A stretch of DNA of 64,000 bases from a bacterium (GCA_037130335.1 JBAXTD010000001.1:103419-167418); one strand, 5' to 3'; numbered from the stretch's first letter, positions 33,315-56,553 are shown. Numbers and translations: made by a program. Notes: generated by a model not told the origin, from the sequence alone.

Positions 33315-33570
33315 ATTGAATTCTGTTTCATTTTCCTATTTATAGGGCTTTGAAATTTAGTGCGTCGATTTTTTGTGCCTCAATTGAGCACAAAAAGGTT
33401 TAGTAGGCACCTACAACTATTTGGCAGTTTGGAAAGACAAACAGGTAAGAATATTAAACGGAACAAAATATAGCGCATCACTCACATATACAAAAACAAA
33501 AAATAACATCCAAAACATTGGGTGATTTTTTGTATTTCATATAGCAAAAATATGTAGTGCGTGTTACAGT

Positions 33571-37232: not shown

Positions 37233-37240
37233 GAAATATG

Positions 37241-39823: not shown

Positions 39824-42337
39824 ATGGCTATATTACAGAATCTTTTTGGAGATAGTAAAATGAAGTTTGCAAACAGTGTAAAAGCGGTTGTGGCAGAAGT
39901 TGCATCATATGAAGACGAGCTCAAAACCCTTGAGGATACTGTATTTCCCGAAAAAACAGCAAATTTAAAACTACGATATAAAAACGGAGAAACGCTAGAC
40001 CAATTATTACCCGAAGCATTTGCGCTTGTGCGTGAAGCATCACGTCGTGCTATTGGTCAACGTCATTACGATGTACAAATTATTGGAGGTATTGCACTTC
40101 ATCGAGGCAACATTGCAGAGATGCGCACCGGTGAAGGAAAGACATTGGTAGCAACGCTTCCAGTGTATCTCAATGCGCTTGCTGGACGTGGCGTGCACGT
40201 CGTGACTGTGAATGATTATCTTTCACGTCGTGATGCGGTATGGATGAGTCAGGTGTATCATTTCCTCGGACTTTCTGTGGGTGTAATTAATTCACAAAAT
40301 ATTTCCTATGTATATGATCCTACACACACCGAAAAGCAAACTGAACAAGAAGGAGTTTCTGTATACAAAGTTGTATATGATTTTTTGCGACCATCATCGA
40401 GACGTGATGCATACAACGCAGATATTACGTATGGTACAAATAATGAATATGGTTTTGATTATTTGCGCGACAATTTAGCAACACATGCAGAAAATTTAGT
40501 TCAACGTGATCACTTTTTTGCTGTTGTAGATGAAATCGATTCAATTTTGATTGATGAAGCACGTACACCACTTATTGTTTCTTCTGATTCAGAAGAGTCA
40601 GGAAGTTTTTATAAAACATTTTCTGATATTGCTTCGCAAATGATTGCAGAAGAAGATTTTACTGTAGATGAAAAACGCAAAGCAATTTCGCTTACTGATG
40701 CAGGAATTTCAAAAGCAGAAGCAAAACTTGATATCAGTAATATTTACACCGAAAAAGGAATCAAATATGTTCATCATCTCGAAACCGCAGTGCGTGCAAA
40801 GGCATTGTTTATTCGCGATCGAGATTATGTTGTCAAAGATGGTGAGGTAATCATCGTCGACCCATTTACTGGACGTATGCAGCCGGGTCGTCGTTGGAAT
40901 GAAGGCTTGCATCAAGCAATCGAAGCCAAAGAAAGTGTAAAGATTCAAAAAGAAACTCGCACGAGTGCATCGATTACATTTCAAAATTATTTTAAATTCT
41001 ACGAGAAGCTTTGTGGAATGACAGGAACTGCACAAACAAGTGATGAAGAATTCCGTAAAGTATATGGCTTAACTGTTGCAGTAATTCCAACTCATCGCGA
41101 AATCAAACGTGTTGATCACAATGATTTAATTTTTCAAACAGAAAAGGGTAAATGGCAGGCGATTGCGCGCGAAGTCAAAGCTCGTCACGAAAAAGGTCAG
41201 CCAGTACTTATCGGTACGATTTCAATTGAACGCAATGAATTACTCTCTGCGTATTTGCGTGATGCAGGTGTGCCACATACGCTCCTTAATGCCAAGAACC
41301 ACGAAAAGGAAGGTGAGTTGATTGCTCAAGCAGGTAAGCGTGGAGCAGTAACTGTGGCGACAAACATGGCTGGACGTGGAATTGATATTATTTTAGGTGG
41401 TGTGCCAGCAACCGATGAATCAAAAGAAGAAATCCGTGCGCTTGGTGGATTGTATGTGCTGGGAACAGAACGTCACGAGGCACGTCGTATCGACAATCAG
41501 CTTCGCGGACGCGCAGGACGTCAGGGTGATCCAGGCGAGACACAATTTTTTGTTTCGCTCGAAGACGATCTCATGCGTGTGTTTGGATCTGACCGTATCA
41601 AAAACATGATGGGACGTTTTGGAATTCCAGAAGACCAACCAATCGAAAACAGCATGATTACAAGTGCACTTGAAACTGCTCAGAAAAAAATCGAAGGATT
41701 TCATTTCGATGCTCGTAAATACACACTCGAATACGACAACGTGCTTTCACATCAGCGTGGAATTATTTATTCTCGTCGTCGTACAATGCTTCTTTCCAAA
41801 AAGGAGGACATGCAGACATATCTCGATCAATTCATTGGCGTAGATTCACACGTCGCCACTCTCGTTTCTCAAAAACGAGCGGCATTTGGTGATGATGCGT
41901 TCTTTGAAACATTTCGTCGAATTGTGTTGTTTGTCACTGATACACTGTGGATTGAACATCTCGAGACAATGGAATATTTGCGTTCATCGGTAAATTTGCG
42001 TGCATATGGTGGACGCGAACCGCTTGTCGAGTATCAACGTGAAGGTTTGCGATTATTCAAAGATTTGGAAGCAAGTTTCCGTGAACAAGTAATTGATTTG
42101 GTTGAAAAAATGTCTGAGCAACCCGTGATGCAAAACACACCAATCGAAATTCCCACACCACAAACATTCACTGCAACTCACATGGAACCAGAGGAACTAA
42201 CCGGCAAAGTGGAAAAGAATTCTCCACTCGCACAAAATAATTCTCAATCAAAATCAGAATCAAAAGTAGGTAGAAACGACCCATGTCCATGCGGTAGCGG
42301 CAAAAAATACAAGAAGTGTCATATGAATGGGAACTAG
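39824..42337 (+). CDS. secA: Preprotein translocase ATPase SecA.
   Basis: N-terminus MAILQNLFGD...EMRTGEGKTLVATLP (Walker A), DEAD-like VDEIDSILIDEARTPLI, C-terminal zinc finger CPCGSGKKYKKCH. The last five codons lie inside the attL repeat. Confidence 0.95.
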   Translation: MAILQNLFGDSKMKFANSVKAVVAEVASYEDELKTLEDTVFPEKTANLKLRYKNGETLDQLLPEAFALVREASRRAIGQRHYDVQIIGGIALHRGNIAEMRTGEGKTLVATLPVYLNALAGRGVHVVTVNDYLSRRDAVWMSQVYHFLGLSVGVINSQNISYVYDPTHTEKQTEQEGVSVYKVVYDFLRPSSRRDAYNADITYGTNNEYGFDYLRDNLATHAENLVQRDHFFAVVDEIDSILIDEARTPLIVSSDSEESGSFYKTFSDIASQMIAEEDFTVDEKRKAISLTDAGISKAEAKLDISNIYTEKGIKYVHHLETAVRAKALFIRDRDYVVKDGEVIIVDPFTGRMQPGRRWNEGLHQAIEAKESVKIQKETRTSASITFQNYFKFYEKLCGMTGTAQTSDEEFRKVYGLTVAVIPTHREIKRVDHNDLIFQTEKGKWQAIAREVKARHEKGQPVLIGTISIERNELLSAYLRDAGVPHTLLNAKNHEKEGELIAQAGKRGAVTVATNMAGRGIDIILGGVPATDESKEEIRALGGLYVLGTERHEARRIDNQLRGRAGRQGDPGETQFFVSLEDDLMRVFGSDRIKNMMGRFGIPEDQPIENSMITSALETAQKKIEGFHFDARKYTLEYDNVLSHQRGIIYSRRRTMLLSKKEDMQTYLDQFIGVDSHVATLVSQKRAAFGDDAFFETFRRIVLFVTDTLWIEHLETMEYLRSSVNLRAYGGREPLVEYQREGLRLFKDLEASFREQVIDLVEKMSEQPVMQNTPIEIPTPQTFTATHMEPEELTGKVEKNSPLAQNNSQSKSESKVGRNDPCPCGSGKKYKKCHMNGN

Positions 42338-43914
42338 AAAATAAAGTCGATTTCTACCTTGTTGTCTCCGGCTCGAATCTCCTTGATAATACTGCGTAAA
42401 ATCATCTTTTTCTCATCCAGTTCCATCTTGTCCCAGCAGGCATCAAAATCCTTCAAAGAGGCCACTAATTTGCGTGTTACAGCCACTTTCTGTGCGGTAG
42501 TGGTTGAGAGTAGAGATAAGCGTTCCACCTCCACACGGCTTTTTTGGATTTCCTGCCTAATCCTTGAAATATGCGCATCCAGTTGCTCCAAGGTTTCGAC
42601 TCCTTTTTCATAAGCTTCTTGATGTCGTTGCTCTCTGGCTGGACCTGATTCAATATCTCGGTTTAATCGAGCAATCGTTTTTTCTCTGTCATTTTCTTCC
42701 TGGTTGCCAGCCGTATAAGTTATATTTTCTTGGACCTTGGGGTGCGAATACAGATTTTTTATATGATCCAAAACTGCGCCTTCCAACTTGTCGGCACTCA
42801 TCACTCTTTGAGAGCAAATGCCTTTGTATTTGTATCCCGTGCAGATATATTCAAAAGTCGTTGTATCTTTCCATTTTGGATTTTTGTCAGATCTCTTGTG
42901 GCGACGTTTTTGATAGCCAACGCCGCTCTTGCAGCGGATGCATTTTGCAATTCCGGTGAGAACCCCTAGGGACCTCCCAGCTCCGCCTTTTGCGTGCTTG
43001 GTCCTCCCAGCTCTAATTTCTTTGACGAGGTTAAAAATAGTTTCGTCTACGATGGGGGAGTGTTCGCCATTTCCCACATACCCAACCTTGCCACGTCTCT
43101 GCCATTCCTTATTTTTCTTGTAGTCGGCATGTCTCCAGCCCCACCACACTTTGCCTGTGTATGTCGGATTGGCCAAAATATATCTGATGGTTTGGATACT
43201 CCAATTTATTCCATTGGGAGCGCTCCATCCCTTTTTATTCATTTCGATCGCTATTTTTCTGTCGCCATTGCCCCGAGCATATTCATTGAAGATAAAGCGG
43301 ATTTTCTGCGCTTCATCCTCGTCAACGATGACCGTCCTTTTTATTTTATTACCCTCCAGTGTTCTTACGACTTTGTATCCGTAGGGCACGCGGTTTGGTA
43401 TTTTCCCTTCTTTCGCCTTTATCATTTTTCCGCCCTTCATTCGACGATTGATGGCCGTTCGTTCGAGATCGGCTTTCATGTCTGAGATTGTCTCCATGAT
43501 CGTCGCCGAATCATTGTCGTCTGGGTCGTACTCGCTGACCGACTTTGGCTCGACAGGGGTGTTGATCGAGTAGGTTTGAATCCCGAGCCCTTTTAGTTCT
43601 TGCCGGATGATGGCGGCCGCATCTTTGTTTCTGGCAAATCTGTCATAATCCTTTACTATGATGAGGTCAAATTTATGTTCTCGCGCATCCCGCATCATGG
43701 ACTGCAATCCATGTCGCTCCTCCGTCAAATGACCGCTCACTCCTTCGTCTGTGTATTCCTGAAAAAATATCCATCCCTTTTCAAGTATCACCTTGTGGCA
43801 ATCTCTAATTTGCTGGGGGATTGAAGTTTTTTTCTGAGCTTGCTCTTGAGTACTCACTCTTCCATACGGAGCGACTCTCAAGCTCGTATTCACTGCACCT
43901 GCATTTCTATCCAT
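42334..43914 (-). CDS. Large serine recombinase.
   Basis: N-terminal resolvase domain with the catalytic Ser in YGRVSTQEQ, plus a recombinase domain, Cys-rich zinc ribbon (CIRCKSG...C) and C-terminal coiled coil. Its stop overlaps the secA stop by 2 nt. Confidence 0.8.
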   Translation of the reverse strand: MDRNAGAVNTSLRVAPYGRVSTQEQAQKKTSIPQQIRDCHKVILEKGWIFFQEYTDEGVSGHLTEERHGLQSMMRDAREHKFDLIIVKDYDRFARNKDAAAIIRQELKGLGIQTYSINTPVEPKSVSEYDPDDNDSATIMETISDMKADLERTAINRRMKGGKMIKAKEGKIPNRVPYGYKVVRTLEGNKIKRTVIVDEDEAQKIRFIFNEYARGNGDRKIAIEMNKKGWSAPNGINWSIQTIRYILANPTYTGKVWWGWRHADYKKNKEWQRRGKVGYVGNGEHSPIVDETIFNLVKEIRAGRTKHAKGGAGRSLGVLTGIAKCIRCKSGVGYQKRRHKRSDKNPKWKDTTTFEYICTGYKYKGICSQRVMSADKLEGAVLDHIKNLYSHPKVQENITYTAGNQEENDREKTIARLNRDIESGPAREQRHQEAYEKGVETLEQLDAHISRIRQEIQKSRVEVERLSLLSTTTAQKVAVTRKLVASLKDFDACWDKMELDEKKMILRSIIKEIRAGDNKVEIDFIF

Positions 43915-44092
43915 TTTTAATTTCTAAAAATCGTAATTTTTTTAGTCCGGACATACTAAAAGGACGGTCCTGGCTGCCCAATATACTTGCTCCGTAGGAG
44001 TAGACATAGTGGCAGGACCGCCCTTTTAAGGTCGCTATATCTACTTTATTCCTACACTTTCGTATATCAGGCAGCATAAACATTATACCACA

Positions 44093-44296
44093 TTAAGCCT
44101 CTTTTTGGAGCTCTCTTTGGACGATTTTGTTGATAAGACTAGGCATCAATAGAGACAATTTTTCAGCAAGAGAGTCAACGTCCGTGCCAGCAAAAAATAC
44201 ATCCACAGATGGTCCGCTCTCATCATTGGTCGTATTCTTTTTGGCTGGTACGATTGAGGTCATGTAAGTGTTACTTGTCCTATTTATTTCTTGCAA
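44093..44296 (-). CDS. Hypothetical small protein (67 aa).
   Basis: ORF overlapping the integrase 3' end by 17 nt. No domain. Confidence 0.25.
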   Translation of the reverse strand: MQEINRTSNTYMTSIVPAKKNTTNDESGPSVDVFFAGTDVDSLAEKLSLLMPSLINKIVQRELQKEA

Positions 44297-45392
44297 GAAT
44301 GTCTCGAAAAACCCGAAGTTCTTCTTCGGTCAGGGAACCGTCCTTGTGTTCTCCTTGTGAATTCTTCAGGCTTTTGACGATTCTGATGGCCTCGTTCGCG
44401 GTCATGTTGCCGTACCCATACGAACCGAATGTCGTGGCGACATCTTCGTGTCCCAAGTTGAGGCTGACTGCCTTCTTTTCCTCCTCGGTCAGTCGCTTCT
44501 TGCTCACGATTGCCACCGCCAAATTCCTGAACGAGTGTGGATGATAGTAAGGCATACCGGCTGAGAGGTATCGTTTCTGGAGAATCTTCCGCGCCGATCC
44601 GGAACTGCTCCAAAAATCTGTACCGATCGTTCCTCTGCTGTAAGCGCTCTCGCCAGTTTCAAGATCATTCTGTGTTGTAGGGAAAATCGGATCGTCCGGT
44701 CCGAAGCTCTTCGACTCCAGATATTCGTACCACTCCACGAAGTACCGCTCCGGGTCGTCCCAGCCGAGAGGGAAAAACGTACACAGGATACGTTTCGAGC
44801 TTTTGGTTTTGACGCCGTCCGCGGGGTTCTGGTCGATAACTTTTTCCTGTTTATCAAAACTCTTCATCTTGAGCGTAATGATTGCCGAAATGCGGGCACC
44901 TACCGTAAAGGCAAAACAGATGAGCGCTCGATCGCGCATGTCTATCTCATTTTTGATTTCAATGCCCTCTATGAGCTTCCGGATTTCCTCGAATGTGGGA
45001 ATCTTTTTGGTTGTGCTCTGTCGGGCGATGCGAGTATCCTTTTTGGAAAGACGTAAGTATTCAATATCGCCTTTTGCCATCTTGCTTTTGTACCCTGGCT
45101 GGTCGGAGAGCCATTCGAAAAACTTCTTTACACGGCGGAGATAGTTGTATCGGGTGACAATAGCGATTTTTCCCGTCGGAGTTTTTGACGATTTTGTCTC
45201 AAGCCACTCGACGAACGCCGTCGCCTTCATTTTGTTGAAATTGGCGAAGTCCTCGTTCCCTGTAAAAAGTTGCCACTTGGCAATCGCTCCAGCAAAGACG
45301 AGGATAGAGCCCTTGGTGAACCCTCGGGCACCCAGGAGTTGCTCTAAAAAGTCCCGCTTCGCCTTTTCATTTTCGTATGGTATGTCTGTCAT
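44280..45392 (-). CDS. Tyrosine recombinase / phage-type integrase.
   Basis: SAM-like N-domain. Catalytic R...HPHSFRN...LGHEDVATTFGSYGY (R, HxxR, Y). Confidence 0.8.
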   Translation of the reverse strand: MTDIPYENEKAKRDFLEQLLGARGFTKGSILVFAGAIAKWQLFTGNEDFANFNKMKATAFVEWLETKSSKTPTGKIAIVTRYNYLRRVKKFFEWLSDQPGYKSKMAKGDIEYLRLSKKDTRIARQSTTKKIPTFEEIRKLIEGIEIKNEIDMRDRALICFAFTVGARISAIITLKMKSFDKQEKVIDQNPADGVKTKSSKRILCTFFPLGWDDPERYFVEWYEYLESKSFGPDDPIFPTTQNDLETGESAYSRGTIGTDFWSSSGSARKILQKRYLSAGMPYYHPHSFRNLAVAIVSKKRLTEEEKKAVSLNLGHEDVATTFGSYGYGNMTANEAIRIVKSLKNSQGEHKDGSLTEEELRVFRDILARNK

Positions 45393-45398
45393 AGCCTG

Positions 45399-45632
45399 TT
45401 ATTTCAGTGGTAACGGGGTCGGTTTGAGCGGTTTCAGGGTTTTTGCCATTCTTTCCAAGAGCATGATGTTGGGCAGTAGGTCATTCGCCGCCTGAAACTG
45501 CTTTTTCTTGACGCAAACTTTTTGGATTTTTTTGAGATGTTCGATTTCCGACTCAAGCGCGGAGAGAACGTATGGGATATTTTTAAGACTGATGTTGAGG
45601 CTTATTTTTTCTTCGGTTGATGGAGTTTCCAT
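45399..45632 (-). CDS. Hypothetical small protein (77 aa).
   Basis: Lies between the xis-like gene and the integrase. Confidence 0.3.
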   Translation of the reverse strand: METPSTEEKISLNISLKNIPYVLSALESEIEHLKKIQKVCVKKKQFQAANDLLPNIMLLERMAKTLKPLKPTPLPLK

Positions 45633-45776
45633 GGTGTTAATTTCTGAGATTTTGTTTGTAATAATGCTCGACTGTTTGATTCATTTTTGCTGACTATTTT
45701 TGTCGTGATTTCGGTATGTGCGCCCACGGTTCATAACAGACATTTACGTTAGAAGAGAGGGTATACCATAGTCCTT

Positions 45777-46130
45777 TCAGGAGGGTCTGATTGTCCGGCT
45801 CATCTTCCTGTTGCAGACACGGCATTCGCCTGTTTTTCGGTTCGCCAATTTTCTAATCGTGCCCCGTTTTGCTAGTCGTGCGGCTCTGCATTTGAAGCAG
45901 TAAAACTCACACCGCTTCAACTTCACTTTTTTCTTGGAATCTTTTTTTCGCAAAAATTCTTTGATGTCGGAGCCCAGCAGGAGGATCGGTTTCTTGCTTC
46001 CTTGGACGATTGGCAGGCCGCTCTCGATCCAGCGTGAAATGGTTTTTTCAGTGGCGTCCACATCGTTCGATAGTTCTTTGATCGTGTAACTGATATGGTC
46101 ATATATTTTTTGACGGTTTATCCGTGTCAT
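45777..46130 (-). CDS. Excisionase-like HTH DNA-binding protein with a C-terminal zinc ribbon.
   Basis: YTIKELSNDVDATEKTISRWIESGLPIV HTH (Xis/MerR-type), plus CEFYCFKC...CRVC. Confidence 0.5.
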   Translation of the reverse strand: MTRINRQKIYDHISYTIKELSNDVDATEKTISRWIESGLPIVQGSKKPILLLGSDIKEFLRKKDSKKKVKLKRCEFYCFKCRAARLAKRGTIRKLANRKTGECRVCNRKMSRTIRPS

Positions 46131-46141
46131 CGGATTCCGCT

Positions 46142-46426
46142 CTATTCCGAGTAGAGTTTGTTCTTTAGCGCCTTCATGTGGTCAAAATACGACCGGGCTT
46201 TGACCTCCAAGCGGTTCGAGAAATACTTGTCAGTTACTTCCTCGATGCCACTTTCCTTTTTGAACATAAACAGAGCTTTGCGCGGATTGCTTTTTTCAAC
46301 CGCTACAAGCTCAAAATCCGCACATAGGAGTGCGGCTGATACACCGAGGTCGTACGTTGTCCACACGAAATCGGGGTCATCGAGCGGGATGGACCCGCGA
46401 GATGCTTTCTTTGCTTTGTTACTCAT
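46142..46426 (-). CDS. Hypothetical protein (94 aa).
   Basis: Immediately downstream of the 582-aa gene on the same strand. Confidence 0.35.
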   Translation of the reverse strand: MSNKAKKASRGSIPLDDPDFVWTTYDLGVSAALLCADFELVAVEKSNPRKALFMFKKESGIEEVTDKYFSNRLEVKARSYFDHMKALKNKLYSE

Positions 46427-46597
46427 CGTAATTTTAGCTAGGTTTTGTAATATGAGAGTGTTCCTGCTCTCAATTACAGTTTTGATTTTTTGGAATGTTC
46501 TGCGTATTTCTTGTGATTTCTTGGAAACGCAAAATCCACCTTTATTTCAAAGGTGGATTTTTTCTAGAGAGAGCGATTTTTCAAGAAGTCACAGGAT

Positions 46598-48346
46598 TTA
46601 GCCCATCTTGTTATTGAAGCTCACTCCGACGGCTCGTACTATCTTGATGAGTGGTTTTCCATTATCTTCCGTTTTTGCTATTTCGGCGTATCGTAGAAAT
46701 CCGTTGCTCTTATCGGTGAGATTCGTTTGTATGAACTTCCGCATTTCCTCGTCATTTTTCGATTTTAATTTCGGAATCCGGCTCTTTACTTCGGCGAATA
46801 GTTCCTCATATTTTATCTCTCCGCCCTCGGGTCGGGTCGCATATAAAGCGCTGAATGTCTTGTAGTAATCAGCATCTTTTGAAAGGCCAAGCACGCCGCC
46901 CTTATACTTAAAATCGTCGCCATTTTTTGTGATATAAAAAAGATTTTGCGGATTTTTTTCGTACTTATTTAGTACCTCAATTTTCATTACGCCATCTTTT
47001 TCGGGAGTGACTTTTTTAGTCCTTTGCTCTGAAATGAGCTTTGTTATCTCTTCGAGCTGTTTTTCTTCGTCTGTCATTTCAGATTTTTCCTCGCCAAGAA
47101 TACATAATTTTGTAATCTCGCTATGCGTGCTATACAGCGATGGCCTGATTGTATCCCAAGACAGAACAGGACCAAGCGTCTCCGTCGGATTTTTAGGGTC
47201 GCCGTTCCATTCCATTTCGGCAGAATACAGATCGCCCTTAAATTGCTTGCAAGGATTGATACGATAGTGTTTCAAGGACAAACCGCGCGTGATGGTTTCG
47301 ATTTTATTTTTGAGCAAAAGGTAGGCGCTGTTCAGCTCCTTTGTGGGGTGGGTGATGTTCTCGCAAAAAATCTCAAGAATATCCATATATGCCTGGTGGT
47401 GTTTTCTCAATTCCTCGATTACATCTTTTTTTGCGAGCGCTGTCGCTTTGTCCTGCAAAATATCTTTTTCCTCCCATTCGAGTAAGACGTCGTCTGGTAA
47501 AATTGGCTGTTCTTCAAAACTTGTTATGATGTACTCGTTCCCGAGACGCTCGACAAGAAAATTATCATATTTCAAATACTTTTCTAGTTTTACAGCAAGC
47601 TCATCCGTCCTCTTCTCGTTGGCGTTGTGATTGAGCGGATGGAGGAGTGTTGTGATTATTTCTTTGATGGTCCAGTTTGCGTTGATGGCTTTTTTACGGA
47701 TAGTTTGTAGAACATCGTCAAAGTTGTAAAAAGAATTTTCTTCAAACAAGTCATCCACTAAGTAGGCGTGGATTACTTTTTGATTATAGAGCGCAGGTTC
47801 CTCCTCTATGATCGGTGATATAATTTTTCTTATAGCAAAATTGGTGAGGTAATTGTTGATTTCCTCCGCGACCAATTCAAGAACCTTCTCGCTGAAAGTG
47901 CCACTATTTATATCGGGCAATTCTTTGACTTCATCTTTTGTTGTTTCTTCCGAATTGATTTCCTCGGTGTCGTCGGTGATCGGCACGATTTTTGCAATGC
48001 GTTCGTCTGATTGTATCCGTAGGTTTTCGTAAGAAAGTACCTGGTTTAGCCCGTCAATAAAATTTTTTCGTAATTGCAAATCGGTGAAATTTAGTGGATG
48101 ACAAAACTCTTCAAGAACGCTAAAAAGTCCATCCTCTGTCGGTATTTTACCGAACGCATCAAGTGTTATTCGCCATTTGGCGTAGAGTGCTACGTCGGTA
48201 GAGATATGAGCATCCGTAAAGACATTCACGATCTCGTTTGTCGTAAATTGTCCCGCTATTAAGCGAGCGATTTTTTCTTTGACTCGAACACTGATTTTCA
48301 TAGTTGAGAGTAATAGTAATTTTCTTGCACAATTGAATCCTAGCAT
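46598..48346 (-). CDS. Large uncharacterised island cargo protein (582 aa, mostly helical).
   Basis: No recognisable catalytic motifs. Divergently transcribed from the AbiE pair. Confidence 0.5.
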   Translation of the reverse strand: MLGFNCARKLLLLSTMKISVRVKEKIARLIAGQFTTNEIVNVFTDAHISTDVALYAKWRITLDAFGKIPTEDGLFSVLEEFCHPLNFTDLQLRKNFIDGLNQVLSYENLRIQSDERIAKIVPITDDTEEINSEETTKDEVKELPDINSGTFSEKVLELVAEEINNYLTNFAIRKIISPIIEEEPALYNQKVIHAYLVDDLFEENSFYNFDDVLQTIRKKAINANWTIKEIITTLLHPLNHNANEKRTDELAVKLEKYLKYDNFLVERLGNEYIITSFEEQPILPDDVLLEWEEKDILQDKATALAKKDVIEELRKHHQAYMDILEIFCENITHPTKELNSAYLLLKNKIETITRGLSLKHYRINPCKQFKGDLYSAEMEWNGDPKNPTETLGPVLSWDTIRPSLYSTHSEITKLCILGEEKSEMTDEEKQLEEITKLISEQRTKKVTPEKDGVMKIEVLNKYEKNPQNLFYITKNGDDFKYKGGVLGLSKDADYYKTFSALYATRPEGGEIKYEELFAEVKSRIPKLKSKNDEEMRKFIQTNLTDKSNGFLRYAEIAKTEDNGKPLIKIVRAVGVSFNNKMG

Positions 48347-48456
48347 CTTTTTCTATGAAAACTAAGTGTTTTTTGTTGTTCTCAAAACTTGCTGTTATTT
48401 TAAGATATGCTAAACTGTTTCCAAAGAGTGCTATAAATAGCATCTTTTGGAAATAT

Positions 48457-49083
48457 ATGCAATATCAAGAATTACGTCAAAAACTCAAGGATTTCAGTGT
48501 TTTTTCGCTTTCAGACATTCGAAAGATCGAATCTGATTTTCATCGTCGTCGCTTGAATGAATGGCAAGAAAAGGGTTATATCAAGAAGCTCCGTCGCGGA
48601 TACTATATTTTCTCCGATCTCTTAATCTCCGAAGAGACGCTTTTTCTCATTGCCAATCGTCTTTATAATCCCTCGTACGTATCACTTGAGATGGCGATGT
48701 CGCGCTACGGATTGATTCCTGAGTCGGTCTATGGCGTGACTTCAGTTGGGAGTAAAAAGACCGCCGATTTTAAGACACCGATAGCAACTTTTCTATATCG
48801 CAGTATCAAGCCGTCGCTTCTTTTTGGCTACAAGCTGGAAGGAACAAAGAAGCAGAAATATAAGATCGCCGAGATTGAAAAGGCGGTGTTAGATTATCTC
48901 TATTTCAACAAACATTTATCCGCTGACGATGATTTTGAGGGGATACGTTTCAATGGCGAGGAGTTTCTAAAAAAGGCTGATATGTTGAAGTTCGAGCGAT
49001 ACCTCAGAGTATTCAAGAATAAAAATTTAACAGAGCGGGCTGGTGCGCTTATCAATTATATAAAGAATAACAACCATGCTTAG
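48457..49083 (+). CDS. AbiEi-family antitoxin / transcriptional regulator (type IV TA / Abi).
   Basis: N-terminal wHTH MQYQELRQKLKDFSVFSLSDIRKIE...GYIKKLRRGYYIFSD typical of the AbiEi N-domain. Start placed at the internal ATG 48457. Confidence 0.65.
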   Translation: MQYQELRQKLKDFSVFSLSDIRKIESDFHRRRLNEWQEKGYIKKLRRGYYIFSDLLISEETLFLIANRLYNPSYVSLEMAMSRYGLIPESVYGVTSVGSKKTADFKTPIATFLYRSIKPSLLFGYKLEGTKKQKYKIAEIEKAVLDYLYFNKHLSADDDFEGIRFNGEEFLKKADMLKFERYLRVFKNKNLTERAGALINYIKNNNHA

Positions 49084-49852
49084 CCTTCAAGAAATCGAAG
49101 TTCAGTATCCAGAAAACCTACGCCCCTTCAAGCGCAACATTTTGCGTGAGTATTTGCAATACAAGATTTTGGAGATCATCTTCAAATCGTCTCACGCGGC
49201 TAAGCTTTCCTTTCTCGGGGGTACGGCGCTCCGAATCGTCCACAACAACAGTCGCTTCTCGGAGGATCTTGATTTTGATAACTTCGGGCTGGAAGAGAGT
49301 GAGTTCAATGCTATCGCCGAAGAGGTAAAAGCAGGGCTCGATGCTCTTGGATTGAAGACGGAAATCAATACTGTGATGAAGGGAGCATATCGTTGCAACG
49401 TCAGACTTCCTGAAGTGCTTTTTGTGAATGAACTATCTCCCTTGCAAGAGGAAAAGATATTGATCCAGATCGACACGGTCCCACACCAGTATCCATATAC
49501 GCCTGACAAAAAAATCCTCAACAAGTTTGACGTGTTTTCGGAGATCTTTGTCACGCCCGTGTCGCTCTTGCTTTCACAAAAAATCTGGGCTGCCATCAAT
49601 CGCAAGCGAGCAAAGGGTCGTGATTTCTACGACATCGTCTTTCTCTTTTCTTTCACTAAACCTGAGTACCCGTATTTGATGCAGAAGATCGGTGCGGGCG
49701 ATGGGGAAGCGGTTCGACAAAAGCTACTCGACTCTATCCAAGACCTAGATTTTAAGATGCTTGCTGACGATGTTCGTCCGTTCCTATTCAATCCGGCTGA
49801 TGCACAGAAGGTTGAGCTTTTCAGGGAATTTGTAGTTCAAGTAGAGTTTTAG
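49076..49852 (+). CDS. AbiEii/AbiGii-family nucleotidyltransferase toxin (DUF1814).
   Basis: LREYLQYKILEIIFKS...LSFLGGTALRIVHNNSRFSEDLDFDNFG is the hallmark N-terminus. Overlaps AbiEi by 8 nt. Confidence 0.7.
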   Translation: MLSLQEIEVQYPENLRPFKRNILREYLQYKILEIIFKSSHAAKLSFLGGTALRIVHNNSRFSEDLDFDNFGLEESEFNAIAEEVKAGLDALGLKTEINTVMKGAYRCNVRLPEVLFVNELSPLQEEKILIQIDTVPHQYPYTPDKKILNKFDVFSEIFVTPVSLLLSQKIWAAINRKRAKGRDFYDIVFLFSFTKPEYPYLMQKIGAGDGEAVRQKLLDSIQDLDFKMLADDVRPFLFNPADAQKVELFREFVVQVEF

Positions 49853-49867
49853 TATAATTGCAAATAT

Positions 49868-50641
49868 ATGAATTTCGAATTACCAAAATTACAACGCATG
49901 CCAGATGAGCCATCAGGCAGTGCTGATAATGAGACAATAAAAATAGGAAAACAGTATAATGAGTTTGCTGAAAATTTCGCTGATAAACATAAAAATTTAG
50001 ATGAAATTACGCAAGCTTCTTTTCAAAAAGCACTATTAGGAATAGTGTTTAAAGACAAAAAAGTTATTGATTTAGGGTGTGGAGATGGTTACGATTTATT
50101 GAAACTGCAAGAAAAAGGAGCGATTGTTTACGGTCTTGACGCTTCTGAAGAAATGATAAAACTTGCAAAGGCAAAGAACAGCCAGGGTAATTTTGAGAAT
50201 GGTTTTTTTGAAAATATTCCTTATGCCGATGCTTCTTTCGATGTTGTTATAAGTAAATATGCAATGCAAACAAGCAAGGATGTTCCTAAAATACTAGAGG
50301 AAGTTGGGCGAATTTTAAAACCTGGCGGAAAACTTGTGTATGTAGTAACTCATCCAGTCAGACAATTTATGGAGAAAAAGAAGGCGAACAAGGATTATTT
50401 TGAACAAGAGGTAGTAGATTCTGTTTTGTTTGACGGTGCAATTACTGTTCACGAGCCATCGCACACCCTCGCTGAATATCTTAATCCAGAATTTTTAAAA
50501 AATTTCGACTTAACTTTTTACGAAGAAAAATTTGATCCAAGTAATGCTGAAATGGTAGAAGGCTCAAGTTACCCAGCTTTTCTTTGTGTTGGAGCAAAAA
50601 GAAAAAATGCGAGTGAATCAACAATTTCTCAAACAGCTTAA
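49868..50641 (+). CDS. Class I SAM-dependent methyltransferase.
   Basis: VIDLGCGDGYD motif I, DASEEMI, LKPGGKLV. Confidence 0.6.
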   Translation: MNFELPKLQRMPDEPSGSADNETIKIGKQYNEFAENFADKHKNLDEITQASFQKALLGIVFKDKKVIDLGCGDGYDLLKLQEKGAIVYGLDASEEMIKLAKAKNSQGNFENGFFENIPYADASFDVVISKYAMQTSKDVPKILEEVGRILKPGGKLVYVVTHPVRQFMEKKKANKDYFEQEVVDSVLFDGAITVHEPSHTLAEYLNPEFLKNFDLTFYEEKFDPSNAEMVEGSSYPAFLCVGAKRKNASESTISQTA

Positions 50642-50756
50642 TACCAAGTTAGAACTATTGTTATTCAATAATTAACTCAACAAAACCCTCCCTAGACGGC
50701 ATTAAAAAAGACCATGATTGAAATCATGGTCTTAAGTATCTTCGTCTAGGTGCACC

Positions 50757-51548
50757 TTATGCTCTTACTTTTTCAAGCAGGTTCTCCGTTGTAAATGGCA
50801 GTTGTAGATAATGAGGATTATCATTTGCCATCCACCCCGCAGCGATCACTCGCTGTTCGGGTTTTTTCGCCACTAACAATTTCTCAAAAACATCTTTTAC
50901 ATCTTTGCTTTTTACTTGCCCGTTAATCTCGCCTATAAGCAAGGTGATATCAGGATTTTTTTCAGCAAATGTAAGGGGGGCGTTTTCAGTACTCTCATTA
51001 GGGACAAAAATTACATTGAAGTCTGCCTTTAAGCTCTCTTCCAGTCTTTTTTTGTAGTCGTCATTGACTCCAATTAACATGAAAGATTTCTTAGTAGAAG
51101 CTTTCGGCTGCTCGCCAAGTTCGGCGTTCTCGATGGACATAAACCCTTCCGCTGCTGCCAGCCAGTTTTTGTTTCCCTGGTTGAAGCCGCTTACGAATGA
51201 GTTTTTGCCAAGGAGGCTGTCCATCGCCCAAGCTATGGGGCTCGCGTGATGACTGATGTCAGTCAATATGGCTACATGGGGAACGCCCGTGTTTTTTGCC
51301 AATATTGAAAGTATCAGACCGTACGGAGTGTCCTTACCGATTTCGGCTGTAGGGCCGACGCCTTCCTTCTCTCCCGGCATCATCAGATCCGTCAGCAGGA
51401 TGTCGAACTTCCTGGTTTTTAACAAGCCCACCGCCATGGAGTACATGGGGCAGCAAGTCAGGATGACATTTTTGCCGTTGAATTGTTTTTCTGCCGCATC
51501 AAGGTTTGCGCGCGTGTCGTCTACTACTAAGATTGCTATCTTTTTCAT
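50757..51548 (-). CDS. Orphan response-regulator receiver (REC) domain protein with an uncharacterised C-terminal half.
   Basis: ILVVDD (acid pocket) and DILLTDLMMPG (phospho-Asp) motifs. The C-terminal ~140 aa is unknown, possibly a second degenerate flavodoxin-like fold. Confidence 0.55.
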   Translation of the reverse strand: MKKIAILVVDDTRANLDAAEKQFNGKNVILTCCPMYSMAVGLLKTRKFDILLTDLMMPGEKEGVGPTAEIGKDTPYGLILSILAKNTGVPHVAILTDISHHASPIAWAMDSLLGKNSFVSGFNQGNKNWLAAAEGFMSIENAELGEQPKASTKKSFMLIGVNDDYKKRLEESLKADFNVIFVPNESTENAPLTFAEKNPDITLLIGEINGQVKSKDVKDVFEKLLVAKKPEQRVIAAGWMANDNPHYLQLPFTTENLLEKVRA

Positions 51549-51793
51549 ATTTGTTGATTTTAAGTTTGAAATTATTGGTTTATTTCAACCTCTCTGTCGG
51601 GAGGGGCTCAAATAAACCAATAAAGCTTAAAATCAAAGGTTATTAAGGATTTCTTAAATCTTGATTATATCATAGCATGTTTATATATAAAAGTCAAGGC
51701 TAATTCAGCCTCGGCTTGGCCAATTGTTGACTTTCTATAAATATATGTTATCCTATAAAAAAATCACTCTTTCAACTTTTAAATAGCACTTTT

Positions 51794-52111
51794 ATGAAGA
51801 AAATAATGGTTTTCGGTATTTTCGTTTGCTGCATCGCGGCCAGTTGTTCTAAGCGCCCCCAAGTTGTTAAAGTCCTGCCTGGCAAGCTCGTTCGAGTGAT
51901 CGGCAACGATGTATTCTGCCAGTTAAAGCTCGAAGTCGATACTTCACTGAAAGGAGGATTCGGCATTGTTGCCACCTCCTACAACGTATTCGATCACGAC
52001 GCCGAGAAAGGTGACAGTATGCGGGTGGCTCTGTATTCTGACGGGTCCGTCGAAGCTCATACGTACCGCATGCGTACGGACATCATGATCAGGGAGGATC
52101 GCGGGGACTGA
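51794..52111 (+). CDS. Small secreted protein or lipoprotein.
   Basis: Signal peptide MKKIMVFGIFVCCIAASCS. Confidence 0.4.
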   Translation: MKKIMVFGIFVCCIAASCSKRPQVVKVLPGKLVRVIGNDVFCQLKLEVDTSLKGGFGIVATSYNVFDHDAEKGDSMRVALYSDGSVEAHTYRMRTDIMIREDRGD

Positions 52112-52255
52112 TGCCAAAAGGAAAACGGGTGCGCCTATTCGTAAAAGTGCCCACAAATTAAGCCCTTGGAAAAACCAAGGCACTGTCGCAAGGTAATTGC
52201 TTTGCCTGATGAGTCCATGAGGACGAAACAGCTGTTCTTTACATAAAAAATCTAT

Positions 52256-53053
52256 ATGCTCAATTTCAAGGAGTTCCAAGCCAAAGCTCGGGAACTATTC
52301 GGCAAACTGAACTGCGATCCGGCCGGTGACGACCCCATCACATTTCTGCACTCCCTTCCCTGGGAGATACCGAACGGTCCTGCTTTTTCCGAAGAGGAAG
52401 TGGCACGAATGAATATCGACTTCGACGTGCGCGGCTGTTTCGGCCGGGCACTCAAAGCCGCAGTGTTGGTTGAGAAGTATTTTCCGAACGAAACTTTTTA
52501 CAACGGCGAGGTGCTCGAAGACTTGCTTCGCTCCATGCTAATGAAAAAAGTGACACCGGAAAAATGGCATGACGATACCTACGTCGCTGAGATTCTCCAG
52601 TATGAGAATCCGCACGTGGCGATCGTCTGGAACGATTCGCAGTTTGATCCAATCTTCAGTCTTCTGACTGACAGGCCGGAAACGCTCAAGCATCCGTCAA
52701 TATTGAAACATAGCCAATGGGAAGGATTGTACTGCTACTATCTCGTAAGCAGTGGCATGCTCTTGTTCAGACAAAAGCAAAATCCAAACCTATACTTGCA
52801 AGCTCTCAAGCAAGCCGAGGCGATCTGCCCGCACATGCTTCTCGTCAAAGAAAATCTGGTGAGCGCACTCTGCGCCCTGAACAGATTCGACGAGTCGGTC
52901 GCGATTGCGAAATCGCTGGTCGGAAAGCGCAAGGACGCGAAAATGCTATGGTTCCTATTGCAGATGACCGGAGACCCGGCGTACAAAGATCGGCTCGTAC
53001 GCGAGTATGACATCCAAATGCTTCACTTCTTAAACAAAGCGTTCATACCATGA
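52256..53053 (+). CDS. Hypothetical protein (265 aa, high GC).
   Basis: Helical, TPR-like C-terminus. Translationally coupled (ATGA) to the next ORF. Confidence 0.45.
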   Translation: MLNFKEFQAKARELFGKLNCDPAGDDPITFLHSLPWEIPNGPAFSEEEVARMNIDFDVRGCFGRALKAAVLVEKYFPNETFYNGEVLEDLLRSMLMKKVTPEKWHDDTYVAEILQYENPHVAIVWNDSQFDPIFSLLTDRPETLKHPSILKHSQWEGLYCYYLVSSGMLLFRQKQNPNLYLQALKQAEAICPHMLLVKENLVSALCALNRFDESVAIAKSLVGKRKDAKMLWFLLQMTGDPAYKDRLVREYDIQMLHFLNKAFIP

Positions 53054-53235
53054 CACCATCGGACTTGTCACCCGCTATGCGTAAGGCCTACGAGGCCCTT
53101 CCGGAAAACGAAAGAGAAGCGTTCCTTGAAGAGTATGCACACTGGTACGGCGAAACCGTGCGAGGAAACATATCTCGCATAATGGCACGCAATTTTTCGC
53201 ACAATGTTGGGAAACATGTGACGGAAGCGCAGTAA
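53050..53235 (+). CDS. Hypothetical small protein (61 aa).
   Basis: Its start overlaps the previous stop. Confidence 0.35.
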   Translation: MTPSDLSPAMRKAYEALPENEREAFLEEYAHWYGETVRGNISRIMARNFSHNVGKHVTEAQ

Positions 53236-53349
53236 AGAAATTGAAATTCCCAAAGGATAACGGACGAGCCTATATGTAAAATCGTCCACATTTTAGAGCC
53301 CATGAGGAAACTCGTGGTCTCTGAATGAAATTGTACTTTCACAAAATTT

Positions 53350-53395
53350 TTATTGATGACCAGAGAAGGTCACCACCTTTTGTGGTCATCAATAA
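53350..53395. promoter_or_regulatory. Perfect 12-bp inverted repeat (ttattgatgacc N22 ggtcatcaataa), operator-like.
   Basis: Read directly from the sequence. Sits at or over the 5' end of the 53407 gene. Confidence 0.4.
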
Positions 53396-53406
53396 AATCT
53401 CAAATA

Positions 53407-53979
53407 ATGGAAATTATATATAAGAGTAATTCGACTATGGACTTTGCCACTCGCGTAAAGGAAACCATAACATATCTGGACACGGCGATTTTCGAAAAGC
53501 CCGCACGAGTGTCAATAAATACTGACGTGCGTTACGCGAATTTCGGCACTGGTGGATTCATGTCAAAAAGATTGCTATTCAGATTGCTTGGATTATCTGA
53601 TGACTATGTCATCTTTGAAAGAAGCAAGAAAATGGAAATTATAATGAAGATGGACTTCATGGCCACCTGCCTCGCCGCGCACGAAGTTCGGCATCGGTTC
53701 CAACATTACAACAAGAAGACGCTCATCACTTTTGATTTTCTACAGAAGAATAAGATTCTTACTGAACCGGCACTCGCGCACATTCAGAAAGGAAACTATG
53801 ATCTGTACGGAAAAGACAAAGAGATGTATGGGCGCGAGTTTGATGCCTCGGCGATCGAGACGATAATCTCCGGTTGCTCCAAGGCTAAGAATTTCACGAT
53901 GAACGACGTGATTGATTTGATAAAGTGCAATGAAAGCACAATTAGTCAGATTGTCTCTGGAATTGCTAAGCGAAGGTAA
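53407..53979 (+). CDS. Hypothetical protein.
   Basis: ORF from 53353. The internal ATG at 53407 was preferred because the palindrome covers 53350-53395. Confidence 0.4.
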   Translation: MEIIYKSNSTMDFATRVKETITYLDTAIFEKPARVSINTDVRYANFGTGGFMSKRLLFRLLGLSDDYVIFERSKKMEIIMKMDFMATCLAAHEVRHRFQHYNKKTLITFDFLQKNKILTEPALAHIQKGNYDLYGKDKEMYGREFDASAIETIISGCSKAKNFTMNDVIDLIKCNESTISQIVSGIAKRR

Positions 53980-54029
53980 GTTGTTCTCAGTCAAGAAAAT
54001 CCCAAAGCCAACCATTTCGGTTGGCTTTT

Positions 54030-54272
54030 TTACTTTTCTATTTTGGTAAAGCGAAACGCGATAAATGAGAGGTAGAAAAGAACGAGCATTTCGATCCATG
54101 TCATCCAGAGCGGATAGGTCATGCCGCCGAGGCTGATTTCAAATCCGGTCATGATACGGAGCAGGTGAATAAATCCGCCGAAGAAAAAGAGGACTGTGGA
54201 AATATAGAAAAATATTTTCTTGTTCATGGATACAAGAATAGCATATCTAAAAAACGCCATATGTGTGTACAC
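54030..54272 (-). CDS. Small membrane protein (80 aa, 2 TM).
   Basis: Hydrophobic helices. Confidence 0.3.
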   Translation of the reverse strand: MYTHMAFFRYAILVSMNKKIFFYISTVLFFFGGFIHLLRIMTGFEISLGGMTYPLWMTWIEMLVLFYLSFIAFRFTKIEK

Positions 54273-54286
54273 ATTACCACGGTCTA

Positions 54287-55215
54287 CGTATTGTAACCAA
54301 TAGCTTCACACCACCTGCATTGGAGTTAAGTAATTAATCCCTCCATGAACTCGTTTGTTGTTGTAATATTTTAAATACTTTTTAAGTGCACAATTAATTT
54401 CCGAAACATCATTTGAAATTTTGTCTAAACATTCTTCTTGTACTGTTCGATTGAATCTTTCAACATGTGCATTGTCATTCGGTTTTCCGATTCGGGTATA
54501 CCGATGATTTTTCTGTATTTGAGTTACAAACCATTTCCCAAACTCCGGTCCGTGATCCGATTGTAGCATTTTGAATTTGAATGAAGAATGTCGTTGCGCT
54601 TCATTCACAAACCGTATTGTGGTTTGTGAATTCATTTTTGCATATGCTTTTGCATATACCCAACGTGAATATGTATCAATGATGACAAAAACATACAGAC
54701 GTTTCTTCTCCGATATCATCCGATGGATTGTATCAATCTCTAGTAAATCGCCTGATTTCAAGGCGTATGGGCGGTCTACATGCGGATGATATCGTTTCCA
54801 AGGACTTCGTTTCTTCGTTAAATATTTTCGATCGAGTGTTCTTTTTACAGACGAAAGAGAAACTGTTACTCCATCATTTTCTAACTCTTTGTGAACTGCT
54901 TCTGCATATCGATTGTGTTCCAATCTTTTCTTTACGATTTTTCTGACGATATTTTCTGGTAGGGCATTCGGATGTGATTTTGGTTTTGAACTTTTTGTTA
55001 GTATTGGGTGGTCTCCAATGATTCTTGATTTTCGTACCCATTCGGTAATCGCTGTATGATGGAAACCCAGATATCTTCCGACCTTTCTTGCACTCCAACC
55101 TTTATGGACGAGACGCGCTGCGTCTCGTCTGATTCGTGGCATGTTTTTGTTTGATGTGTATGGCATGCTTGATATGGTAATCCAGCGGGTGGTGCCAAGC
55201 TATTGAACCTATACG
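54287..55215 (-). mobile_element. IS481-like insertion sequence (929 bp) with ~38-bp imperfect terminal inverted repeats and a 6-bp target-site duplication GGTCTA.
   Basis: Left end cgtattgtaaccaatagcttcacaccacctgcattgg versus the reverse-complemented right end cgtataggttcaatagcttggcaccacccgctggatt. GGTCTA at 54281-54286 and 55216-55221. Confidence 0.7.
54306..55166 (-). CDS. DDE transposase (HTH plus rve integrase core), IS481/IS3-superfamily type.
   Basis: N-terminal HTH. DDE triad at IDTIH, QSDHGPEF and ERFNRTVQEE. C-terminus is YYNNKRVHGGINYLTPMQV. Confidence 0.8.
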   Translation of the reverse strand: MPYTSNKNMPRIRRDAARLVHKGWSARKVGRYLGFHHTAITEWVRKSRIIGDHPILTKSSKPKSHPNALPENIVRKIVKKRLEHNRYAEAVHKELENDGVTVSLSSVKRTLDRKYLTKKRSPWKRYHPHVDRPYALKSGDLLEIDTIHRMISEKKRLYVFVIIDTYSRWVYAKAYAKMNSQTTIRFVNEAQRHSSFKFKMLQSDHGPEFGKWFVTQIQKNHRYTRIGKPNDNAHVERFNRTVQEECLDKISNDVSEINCALKKYLKYYNNKRVHGGINYLTPMQVV

Positions 55216-55290
55216 GGTCTATTGACATTCTATACATTATATGATAATATACCAGCGATAAATGTTCACTCACAATTAAATATATAACTC

Positions 55291-56037
55291 ATGAAATCAA
55301 TTCTTTTTTGCACCGCTATTTTGATTGTTACTCTTTCTGCTTGTCAGAATGCAAAAGACCCATATGCAGCGACTGTCGATTTTTCAAAACCCGCTGCATC
55401 GAATGCCGATTTTATATTTTCCACCTGCCAGGGTAAGACCCTTCTTGTGGCAGACGCCGCAAGCGCACAAAAAGTTAGTGATAACCTGAAAGCGAAAACC
55501 GGCGGAATATTGTCGGACATGGGAATTGGGAATGCATTTGCGCTTACTTTGCAGGGAAAAACATATTTATGTACTGCAAGGCACGGCGCGGTTGGATTGG
55601 AAAAATATACCAGAACCATCGGGGCGGATATTGCGTTGATAGATTATAACGCCATACCGAACCATGATCTTGGTACAGGATTTCAACTGACCAGCTCGTA
55701 CGAAATGGATACGACCATCCGCACAGGAGACTCGATATTCATTAAGGGATACCTCTTTACCAAAGAGGGAGAGCTGCAAACCGTAACCATCGGCGGCAAA
55801 GGAAAAATAATAGACAAGACTGAGTACGGGAAAAATGTAAGTTTTGGTACTAACGCGCAATACATGCAGCAGCATGAGCTCGTTATCAAGCTTGGTGAGA
55901 ATGTTGAATTGGCAGGTCTTTCTGGCTCTCCGGCATTCAATGCACAAGGGAAGGTGATCGGTGTTTACTCTGGGAGAACCATAGACCAGGACCATGGCAC
56001 TGATACCTACTACATCCGAGTCTCGCTATTTAACTGA
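55291..56037 (+). CDS. Lipoprotein, trypsin-like (S1) serine peptidase fold.
   Basis: Lipobox LSAC. His region CTARHGAV and Ser motif GLSGSPAF. Confidence 0.45.
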   Translation: MKSILFCTAILIVTLSACQNAKDPYAATVDFSKPAASNADFIFSTCQGKTLLVADAASAQKVSDNLKAKTGGILSDMGIGNAFALTLQGKTYLCTARHGAVGLEKYTRTIGADIALIDYNAIPNHDLGTGFQLTSSYEMDTTIRTGDSIFIKGYLFTKEGELQTVTIGGKGKIIDKTEYGKNVSFGTNAQYMQQHELVIKLGENVELAGLSGSPAFNAQGKVIGVYSGRTIDQDHGTDTYYIRVSLFN

Positions 56038-56048
56038 TCTGCATCGGG

Positions 56049-56075
56049 CGACACAATTAAGACCATACTTCTGTA
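56049..56075 (+). terminator. Rho-independent terminator.
   Basis: aagaccatacttctgtatggtctttt. Confidence 0.6.
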
Positions 56076-56232
56076 TGGTCTTTTCTTATAGAGTTTTCTT
56101 AACTGCACGCCGACACCCGAATATTTTTTGTGTGCTAGAATAGGGAACATGACCACCGAAAAACAGACTATTTTAGCTTTCCCATTAGTACAACATGTCA
56201 AGAATTGTCACGGGAAATAAAAACTTTTTTTT

Positions 56233-56553
56233 ATGGAATCAAATAATGTAAAACTAGTTATATTTGTTCCACTTTCCCATGCCGACATTGTACGTGAAGT
56301 CTTGGGGAAAACGGGCGCTGGAAAAATTGGCAATTATGAATTCTGCTCATTCTCTACTCGAGGAATAGGGCGTTTTCGTGGAAACAAAAATTCGAATCCA
56401 TCAATCGGACAAGCTGGAAATTTTGAATCAGTCGAAGAAGAACGAATTGAAGTTATTGTTCCAAGAAAAATTTTAAATGATGTGATTGAAAAAATAAAAG
56501 CAGTGCATCCATACGAGGAAGTTGCGTATGATGTATATTCACTCGAGAATTAA
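56233..56553 (+). CDS. NIF3/YqfO C-terminal-like small protein.
   Basis: Ends ...AVHPYEEVAYDVYSLEN, resembling the NIF3-family C-terminus. Confidence 0.35.
   Translation: MESNNVKLVIFVPLSHADIVREVLGKTGAGKIGNYEFCSFSTRGIGRFRGNKNSNPSIGQAGNFESVEEERIEVIVPRKILNDVIEKIKAVHPYEEVAYDVYSLEN

Follow-up and report, generated by a model that had tools for sequence, protein, structure and literature searches.

The 64,000-nt stretch of bacterial DNA analysed here (GCA_037130335.1 JBAXTD010000001.1:103419-167418, hereafter the window) very probably carries a 13,889-bp mobile element, integrated at the 3' end of secA by its own large serine recombinase (LSR). From crossover at the first AA dinucleotide of the shared core, we infer that the element extends from 42313 to 56201. 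The interval shows a foreign composition, is bounded by attachment (att) junctions and has an empty counterpart in relatives, and thus presents the features of an integrative island. Judged by its sequence, the host is a member of the Patescibacteria with a tiny genome, and the window would be part of a Paceibacterota/Nomurabacteria-like chromosome. The best match of its SecA is 82% identical and comes from a relative (L005; the loci of relatives are labelled L plus a number), and similar metagenome-assembled genomes (MAGs) are labelled Nomurabacteria, Paceibacterota or 'Saccharibacteria'.

The host gene secA (837 aa, 39824-42337, + strand; Pfam SecA_DEAD, P-loop_SecA, SecA_SW, SecA_PP_bind and SEC-C) encodes in the window a C-terminus reading KKYKKCHMNGN, with the stop at 42337 (preceding sequence ...GKKYKKCHMNGN, then stop). 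At the opposite end of the island, ahead of a 106-aa host gene (56233-56553, + strand), we found the sequence GTC AAG AAT TGT CAC GGG AAA TAA, which reads KNCHGK-stop (56200-56220). The SecA tails of island-free relatives follow the pattern K-[K/H/Q]-C-H-G-x(1-3)-stop, with CHGK-stop in L010, L023 and L067, and because they match the right-end fragment, we identify this fragment as the displaced native secA tail. On the left, attL (42283-42340, + strand) comprises a B arm up to 42310, the proposed crossover AA at 42311-42312 and a P' arm at 42313-42340; on the right, attR (56172-56220, + strand) comprises a P arm at 56172-56199, the crossover AA at 56200-56201 and a B' arm that holds the native secA tail (56202-56220). 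Assuming crossover at AA, the element's share of secA amounts to 25 nt (42313-42337), encoding (K)KCHMNGN-stop with the codons G AAG TGT CAT ATG AAT GGG AAC TAG, which include those for the final zinc-binding Cys and His of SEC-C. The TAG stop of secA overlaps the stop codon of the LSR gene on the opposite strand (CTAG) and the P' arm covers both; this P' sequence is also present 3' of secA in L035, L085, L087 and L143. The original prediction, made from the sequence of the window, had proposed integration into the last codons of secA with its C-terminus rebuilt, and the stranded tail, the reconstructed attP and the empty sites of relatives all bear this out.

To reconstruct attP, we placed the left part of attR in front of the right part of attL, which gives ...tCCCATTagtacaacatgtc-AA-gaagtgtcatatgAATGGGaac (junction ...CCCATTAGTACAACATGTCAAGAAGTGTCATATGAATGGGAAC). 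It shows dyad symmetry about AA at 18/28 positions, the highest value among shifted centres, against a window background of 7.35 +/- 2.45. Five relatives without secA at this position (L089, L095, L096, L098 and L108/L109) have a contiguous attP directly past the stop codon of the LSR gene, with symmetry peaking at the same AA (12-21 of 28 positions), and the P arm of the window attR is identical to the L089 attP at 19/23 positions. In one of these, the contig L108 (Ga0209520_10003323; 9,302 bp), the two ends overlap by 127 bp, which indicates that the assembly is circular, with a length of about 9.2 kb. Besides the LSR, this contig codes for an HTH_17/MerR protein, DUF5659, an AAA_25 helicase and proteins with Macro and cREC_REC domains, and from this gene content it appears to be a plasmid-like free form of the LSR family. 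In L095 and L098 a TrwB-like coupling protein and Replic_Relax are encoded next to attP. The free attP form is thus seen in relatives (the L108 circle and the L089, L095, L096 and L098 sites) and not for the element of the window. The attP-form loci L095, L096 and L098 have a far higher guanine-plus-cytosine (GC) content (53-54%), and L095 is flanked by genes for a PAS histidine kinase and a LuxR regulator, unusual for Patescibacteria. The dyad centre of all six attP sites coincides with the first AA (42311-42312 and 56200-56201 in the window), and we consider that crossover probably occurred there, which would give the length of 13,889 bp.

Several observations weigh against an LSR-integrated element with these ends. 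The repeat at the two junctions (AAGAAGTGTCA / AAGAATTGTCA) is short, and its core, allowing up to 3 mismatches, occurs in the window at chance frequency. Crossover is equally possible at the AA at +4/5, at TG or at CA, and dyad symmetry alone favours the first AA. With Pfam and PHROGs we detected no genes for phage functions, replication, transfer or packaging in the island, and the element may be immobile at present or dependent on a helper. Finally, in both carriers, ERZ27300129 and SRR7053525, the island is integrated. As for the repeat, its weight derives from the attP reconstruction and the family comparison and not from the repeat by itself. A search for an exact direct repeat between the island ends gave only chance 10-13-mers, the real core being imperfect: attL and attR have only AAGAA and TGTCA in common, and the duplicated segment matches at 10/11 positions. 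All mismatches between attL and attR fall at third codon positions, as they also do in L093 and L113. Of the repeat expected in the original prediction, a short imperfect core is therefore present at chance level and a long direct repeat is absent; a long repeat is not to be expected here, only a shared core. No internal att-like site was found in the island, and there is no hint of a tandem arrangement such as that of L090 (see below).

The LSR (526 aa, 42334-43914, - strand) is encoded convergently with secA and combines Resolvase (PF00239, 1e-25), Recombinase (PF07508, 4e-19) and Zn_ribbon_recom (PF13408, 6e-8) domains. Its catalytic motif is YGRVSTQEQ, and S21 and R19 are among the invariant residues of a 14-sequence alignment. 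In the PDB it matched the TP901-1 catalytic domain and, over residues 282-525, the A118 integrase C-terminal domain; no PDB matches beyond these two domains were found. A resolvase domain with its Ser nucleophile, the recombinase and zinc-ribbon domains, and a palindromic attP with a short shared core together identify it as a true LSR, with its domains and catalytic Ser intact. The best NCBIfam match is CcrB (E = 1.8e-49), at 169 bits against an equivalog cutoff of 900, so the protein is not assigned to Ccr. Among 50,697 phage and 72,556 plasmid records, no LSR was more than 27-29% identical to it. We retrieved 153 homologues at E < 1e-20, and among the 120 matches listed, those with a named source come only from unclassified MAGs or from Patescibacteria (named as Patescibacteria group, Woesebacteria, Daviesbacteria and Microgenomates). 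As far as these labels and sequences indicate, the family spans at least two patescibacterial lineages, one Paceibacterota-like and the other Microgenomates (Daviesbacteria, Woesebacteria).

The comparison of these homologues bears on which enzyme integrated the island. Taking as informative the 32 distinct LSR loci with DNA available past the LSR stop codon, we found a SEC-C-encoding secA end, convergent and within 260 nt of the LSR gene, in 27 (LSR identity 43-80%), and the remaining five are the attP forms. Sites corresponding to attR, with displaced native tails, are also found in L090, L093/L129 and L113, and L035 retains a 270-bp relic of the LSR 3' end after a secA ending in HMNGN-stop. 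In L090 two units stand in tandem at secA: taking secA on the + strand, attL is followed by a 10.2-kb element, a hybrid site at +10,197, a 1.17-kb unit and attR at +11,366. The cargo of the family members is wholly different, with type I restriction-modification, GmrSD and Prim-Pol in L085 and giant transglutaminase/Ig proteins in L087, and since it varies fully among elements, the conserved unit is the LSR/attP module. The island of the window is therefore not an isolated case, as at least 27 distinct related elements occupy the same secA site.

Tyrosine integrases typically enter the 3' ends of genes and reconstitute them, and the mode of insertion seen here would also fit such an enzyme. 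The island does encode a tyrosine integrase (44280-45392) together with an Xis-like helix-turn-helix (HTH) protein related to HTH_17, in which case the LSR would have been carried along as a passenger or would act as a resolvase. We regard this as very improbable. None of the 26 other secA-adjacent elements carries the integrase, and the homologous blocks of L144 and L145 are located away from secA. In addition, attP abuts the LSR stop codon and has the dyad symmetry of LSR sites, and attL and attR lack the perfect 6-8-bp overlap flanked by arm-type sites. The enzyme that integrated the island is, on these sequence comparisons, taken to be the LSR and not the tyrosine integrase.

The composition of the interval sets it apart from the host. 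GC content is 42.9% for 42338-56220 and 37.1% for the rest of the window, and the highest value among 143 other 13.9-kb windows is 38.8%; the tetranucleotide-usage correlation between island and host is 0.67, against 0.90-0.95 among host segments of equal size. Both analyses agree with the foreign composition first proposed for this interval. The jump in GC described right at the secA stop codon was refuted by the GC-rich end of secA itself, the last 1.3 kb of which already have 42-47% GC, whereas the fall proposed near 56230 was recovered as a step at about 56,000-56,250, the only edge at which one is seen. GC content is uneven within the island, with the methyltransferase (49.8-50.7 kb) and insertion sequence (IS; 54.3-55.0 kb) regions at 35-37% and the highest values in the tyrosine-integrase block. 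In L085, L087, L090, L091, L093, L099 and L143 the element lies at most about 2.5 GC points above the host side and mostly below it; as these family members are not GC-raised, the high GC of the window island is a trait of this chimera and not of the family.

Comparison with related genomes, suggested in the original prediction, did reveal the empty site. A homologue of the 56233 gene lies about 200 bp past secA in L006 and 0.9-2.3 kb downstream in L007, L008 and L082, and in all four the island genes are absent between the two. The reconstructed attB (...GGCAAAAAATACAAGAATTGTCACGGGAAATAA) is similar to the secA ends of relatives. An exact-protein look-up for an empty site retrieved only contigs that bear the island. 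Alternatively, the region past secA would be native but variable, its GC content set by the genes it contains, and no mobile DNA would have been inserted. The GC-rich 3' half of secA, which blurs the left boundary, would suit this, as would the loss of synteny past secA in the closest relative (L005). It leaves the displaced tail at 56202-56220, the palindromic attP, the free attP forms and the family-wide adjacency to secA without explanation, and we consider it hardly credible.

Characterised LSRs are mostly phage integrases, and an attP beside the integrase gene is the layout of phages, so the island might instead be a degraded temperate prophage or a phage satellite with an LSR integrase. 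The type of LSR and the position of attP would agree with this, Abi genes are frequent in prophage cargo, and the family member L093 carries a P4-like primase as well as Phage_P4_cII and GP3_package matches. Searches of the island against Pfam and PHROGs gave no match for capsid, portal, terminase, tail, packaging or lysis genes or for any other virion component, and the island is thus not classed as a prophage. A scan of 2.9 million IMG/VR contigs did not recover the LSR family, the only matches being 23% identical, and attP has no match in IMG/VR either. The free relatives look plasmid-like or mobilisable (AAA_25 in L108; TrwB-like protein and Replic_Relax in L095 and L098). A phage origin is therefore unlikely. 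In the island of the window no relaxase or coupling protein was found with Pfam, and it is not classed as an integrative and conjugative or mobilisable element. An inovirus origin, considered from the literature on such viruses in these phyla, was dropped, as no Zot-like ATPase was found.

An element integrated by its own LSR would have followed the route proposed here. In the free circle, attP would lie straight after the LSR gene as an imperfect palindrome of about 56 bp around the non-palindromic AA. LSR dimers bound to attP and to attB, formed by the secA codons of the last SEC-C zinc ligands (...K-K/N-C-H-G-x-stop), would synapse, cleave with a 2-nt stagger at AA, rotate and religate, to yield attL (42311-12) and attR (56200-01). 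The P' arm would bring in the last codons, so that SecA keeps its Cys and His and ends in KCHMNGN instead of NCHGK, and the essential gene would therefore survive. Integration would leave the LSR gene convergent to secA with overlapping stop codons. Excision would require a directionality factor, for which the best candidate is a 56-aa open reading frame (ORF; 44093-44263, - strand) directly upstream of the LSR gene. It has no Pfam or NCBIfam match, and its C-terminal 28 or so residues recur at the same position and strand in L143 (71%), L128, L085, L100, L106, L089 and L095, from which we infer that it may be an accessory or directionality factor. No terminator-like site was predicted on the + strand from the secA stop (42337) to about 42657. 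With this gene arrangement, transcription of secA in the integrated state probably continues into the LSR gene in antisense, and such read-through could damp LSR expression.

Next to the LSR module, the island contains five co-oriented genes on the - strand. They encode a tyrosine recombinase/integrase (370 aa; Pfam Phage_integrase 7e-10, PHROG_1 integrase 4e-18) for which over 550 patescibacterial homologues with at least 57% identity were found; orf77 (45399-45632), with 57-78% identical copies beside the integrase in L144 and L145; a 117-aa HTH_17-like (Xis/MerR-like) protein with a C-terminal CxxC...CxxC (45777-46130), 61-70% identical in L144 and L145; a 94-aa DUF5659 protein (46142-46426; Pfam 1.4e-9), 80% identical in L144; and orf582 (46598-48346), with two repeated helical N-terminal domains and a helical bundle with a conserved R-x6-H, which is possibly AbiJ/HEPN-like. 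DUF5659 is also found within the secA-LSR elements L091 and L108. Of the three mobility genes that had been called in the island, the LSR and the tyrosine integrase are confirmed by Pfam, while the Xis-like protein scores below the HTH_17 cutoff (E = 3.9e-4, 21 bits against 27). The whole block recurs in L144 (6782-12948) and L145 (9296-12618) with 53-80% identity, followed there by a small HTH gene and an LSR of another family, 25% identical in the catalytic domain; in L145 this LSR is fragmented and the element adjoins uvrB, not secA. The block is absent from every other secA-LSR locus. From these comparisons the island is a chimera of the LSR module with its 56-aa ORF, a widespread tyrosine-recombinase block and cargo.

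It is possible, and we put this forward with reserve, that an older LSR element was entered by an independent one, made up of the tyrosine-integrase block (44264-48346) and perhaps some neighbouring cargo. The block pairs with unrelated LSRs elsewhere, is missing from the other secA-LSR elements and has the highest GC of the island. Flanking repeats or a second att pair were not found in the island, and in L144 and L145 the block again directly precedes a small ORF and an LSR gene in the same orientation, which argues for a functional pairing over random nesting. These sequences suggest a recurrent combination of tyrosine and serine recombinases in patescibacterial elements.

The remaining cargo is, in the scheme proposed, mostly of the defence type, with AbiE, possibly the AbiJ/HEPN-like protein, and a methyltransferase. 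The AbiE pair (48355-49852, + strand) is formed by AbiEi (48355-49083) and AbiEii (49076-49852), identified by PADLOC (9e-63 and 9e-93) and, for AbiEii, by Pfam (5e-20); the adjacent, overlapping genes for an AbiEi antitoxin and an AbiEii nucleotidyltransferase are those of an abortive-infection/type IV toxin-antitoxin pair, as had been predicted. There follow a 257-aa SAM-dependent methyltransferase (49868-50641, + strand; Pfam Methyltransf_11/25/31, partial PADLOC mad2 2e-20), located in a low-GC patch, and a 263-aa protein with an N-terminal receiver domain (50757-51548, - strand; Pfam Response_reg 1.8e-7). Four ORFs of 105, 265, 61 and 208 aa (51794-53979, + strand), in a stretch of about 50% GC, have no match in Pfam, PHROGs, PADLOC or NCBIfam, in agreement with the uncharacterised cargo noted earlier. 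The predicted IS is also present, as an IS481-like element (54298-55205, - strand) with a transposase (54306-55166) containing rve domains and 21-nt terminal inverted repeats (54298-54318 and 55185-55205, 86% complementary), possibly flanked by a 3-bp AAC duplication. The transposase matches NCBIfam IS481 at 1e-49 and 170 bits, against a family cutoff of 224, and the IS would have entered the island later. It has one copy in the window. The Logan assembly of SRR7053525 is interrupted within the IS, a hint of more copies in that genome or community. The last island gene encodes a 248-aa trypsin-like serine protease (55291-56037, + strand; weak Pfam Trypsin/Peptidase_S7), with a terminator hairpin at 56059-56082.

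The element of the window alters four SecA residues. In a sister clade (L101, L103-L105, L108, L111, L114, L115, L121, L123, L125 and L093), the element DNA lying between the att core and the LSR stop codon prolongs the SecA frame by about 30-35 codons. The resulting tail, H[LI]NREPQ..EAYNLY..EEW..RRYGKK-stop, ends at the LSR stop codon or at most 5 nt from it. Read in frame with SecA, it has a pN/pS of 0.44 (36/36 pairs), while shifted frames give about 1, and these values point to purifying selection confined to the SecA frame. The tail is a start-less 'exon': in L108, the free form, it has no ATG and is preceded four codons upstream by an in-frame stop. If the tail peptide is functional, mobile elements would be modifying SecA, the secretion motor, itself. 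A broader proposal, that this LSR clade is a phylum-wide integration system dedicated to secA whose elements rewrite the SecA C-terminus, is advanced here only tentatively.

At the same position of secA we observed a miniature insert of about 105 nt in L030 (12412-12560), L046 (3549-3660) and L064 (12715-12860), and a variant in L032 (4002-4130). Here secA ends in KKCHMTQG-stop, followed by a hairpin and a strong terminator (fold z = -3.8), and in L030 and L064 then by a second AGAAAGTGTCAT(A/G)GGGATTTAG, the displaced tail. Between genomes the insert shows 87-92% identity, where the adjoining secA DNA is just 47-64% identical. Such inserts may be derivatives, either non-autonomous or formed by deletion, for which the same attB serves as target.

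Outside the island, the 106-aa gene of the right flank is followed by NUDIX, kinase-like and NUDIX genes. The window has no tRNA genes over its whole 64 kb. A 16S rRNA gene is found at 31691-33316 (1,626-nt match to a 1,533-position model) and is the only rRNA match reported within the window, and a class-A RNase P RNA lies near it (36824-37234); this accounts for the GC spike at 32-33 kb.

The att sites given here define, at nucleotide level, attL, attR, attP and attB for an LSR family aimed at the SEC-C zinc-finger codons of a nearly universal gene. The family is apparently undescribed, and no description of secA as an LSR target was found in the literature searched, in a limited search that leaves room for an earlier description elsewhere. 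LSR islands in conserved genes are already known; what appears to be new is a large secA-targeting family with defined att sites. In the Patescibacteria (candidate phyla radiation) mobile elements are poorly charted and genetic manipulation is hard. The family explains how defence cargo (AbiE, restriction-modification, GmrSD) spreads among small genomes, the secA site can serve as a marker for islands in MAGs, and the LSR/attP pair is a candidate site-specific integration vector for these bacteria.

Functionally, the nearest analogue is SCCmec in the 3' end of rlmH. In the staphylococcal cassette chromosome (SCC) elements of staphylococci, as here, an LSR (Ccr) places non-phage, non-conjugative cargo in the last codons of a housekeeping gene that is kept intact, but the target is rlmH/orfX and not secA in Patescibacteria. 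In the present element, unlike SCC, the recombinase gene reaches right up to the junction, where the stop codons overlap, and a tyrosine recombinase block is also aboard. With the integrases of A118/LI, TP901-1, phiC31 and Bxb1 the LSR shares the three-domain architecture and an attP beside the integrase gene, and, as in phage-type serine integrases generally, the att sites are imperfect palindromes about a non-palindromic dinucleotide and a separate directionality factor would be expected; in contrast to these, no phage genes were found in the element and other family members are plasmid-like or mobilisable. The islands of tyrosine integrases in tRNA, tmRNA and protein genes such as guaA likewise bring a replacement 3' end that keeps the gene functional, whereas here the enzyme class and its chemistry are different, there is no extended identical core, the duplication is imperfect (10/11) and the symmetry is of the LSR type. 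Diverse LSR clusters were previously found to converge on one site of a conserved gene, such as the Mg-chelatase/ComM-like and prolyl isomerase genes (Durrant et al. 2022, PMC10083194), a study whose main text mentions neither secA nor Patescibacteria. Like those clusters, the divergent LSRs described here (down to 43% identity) share one conserved coding site, but this site is at the extreme 3' end of the gene, which is rebuilt rather than disrupted.

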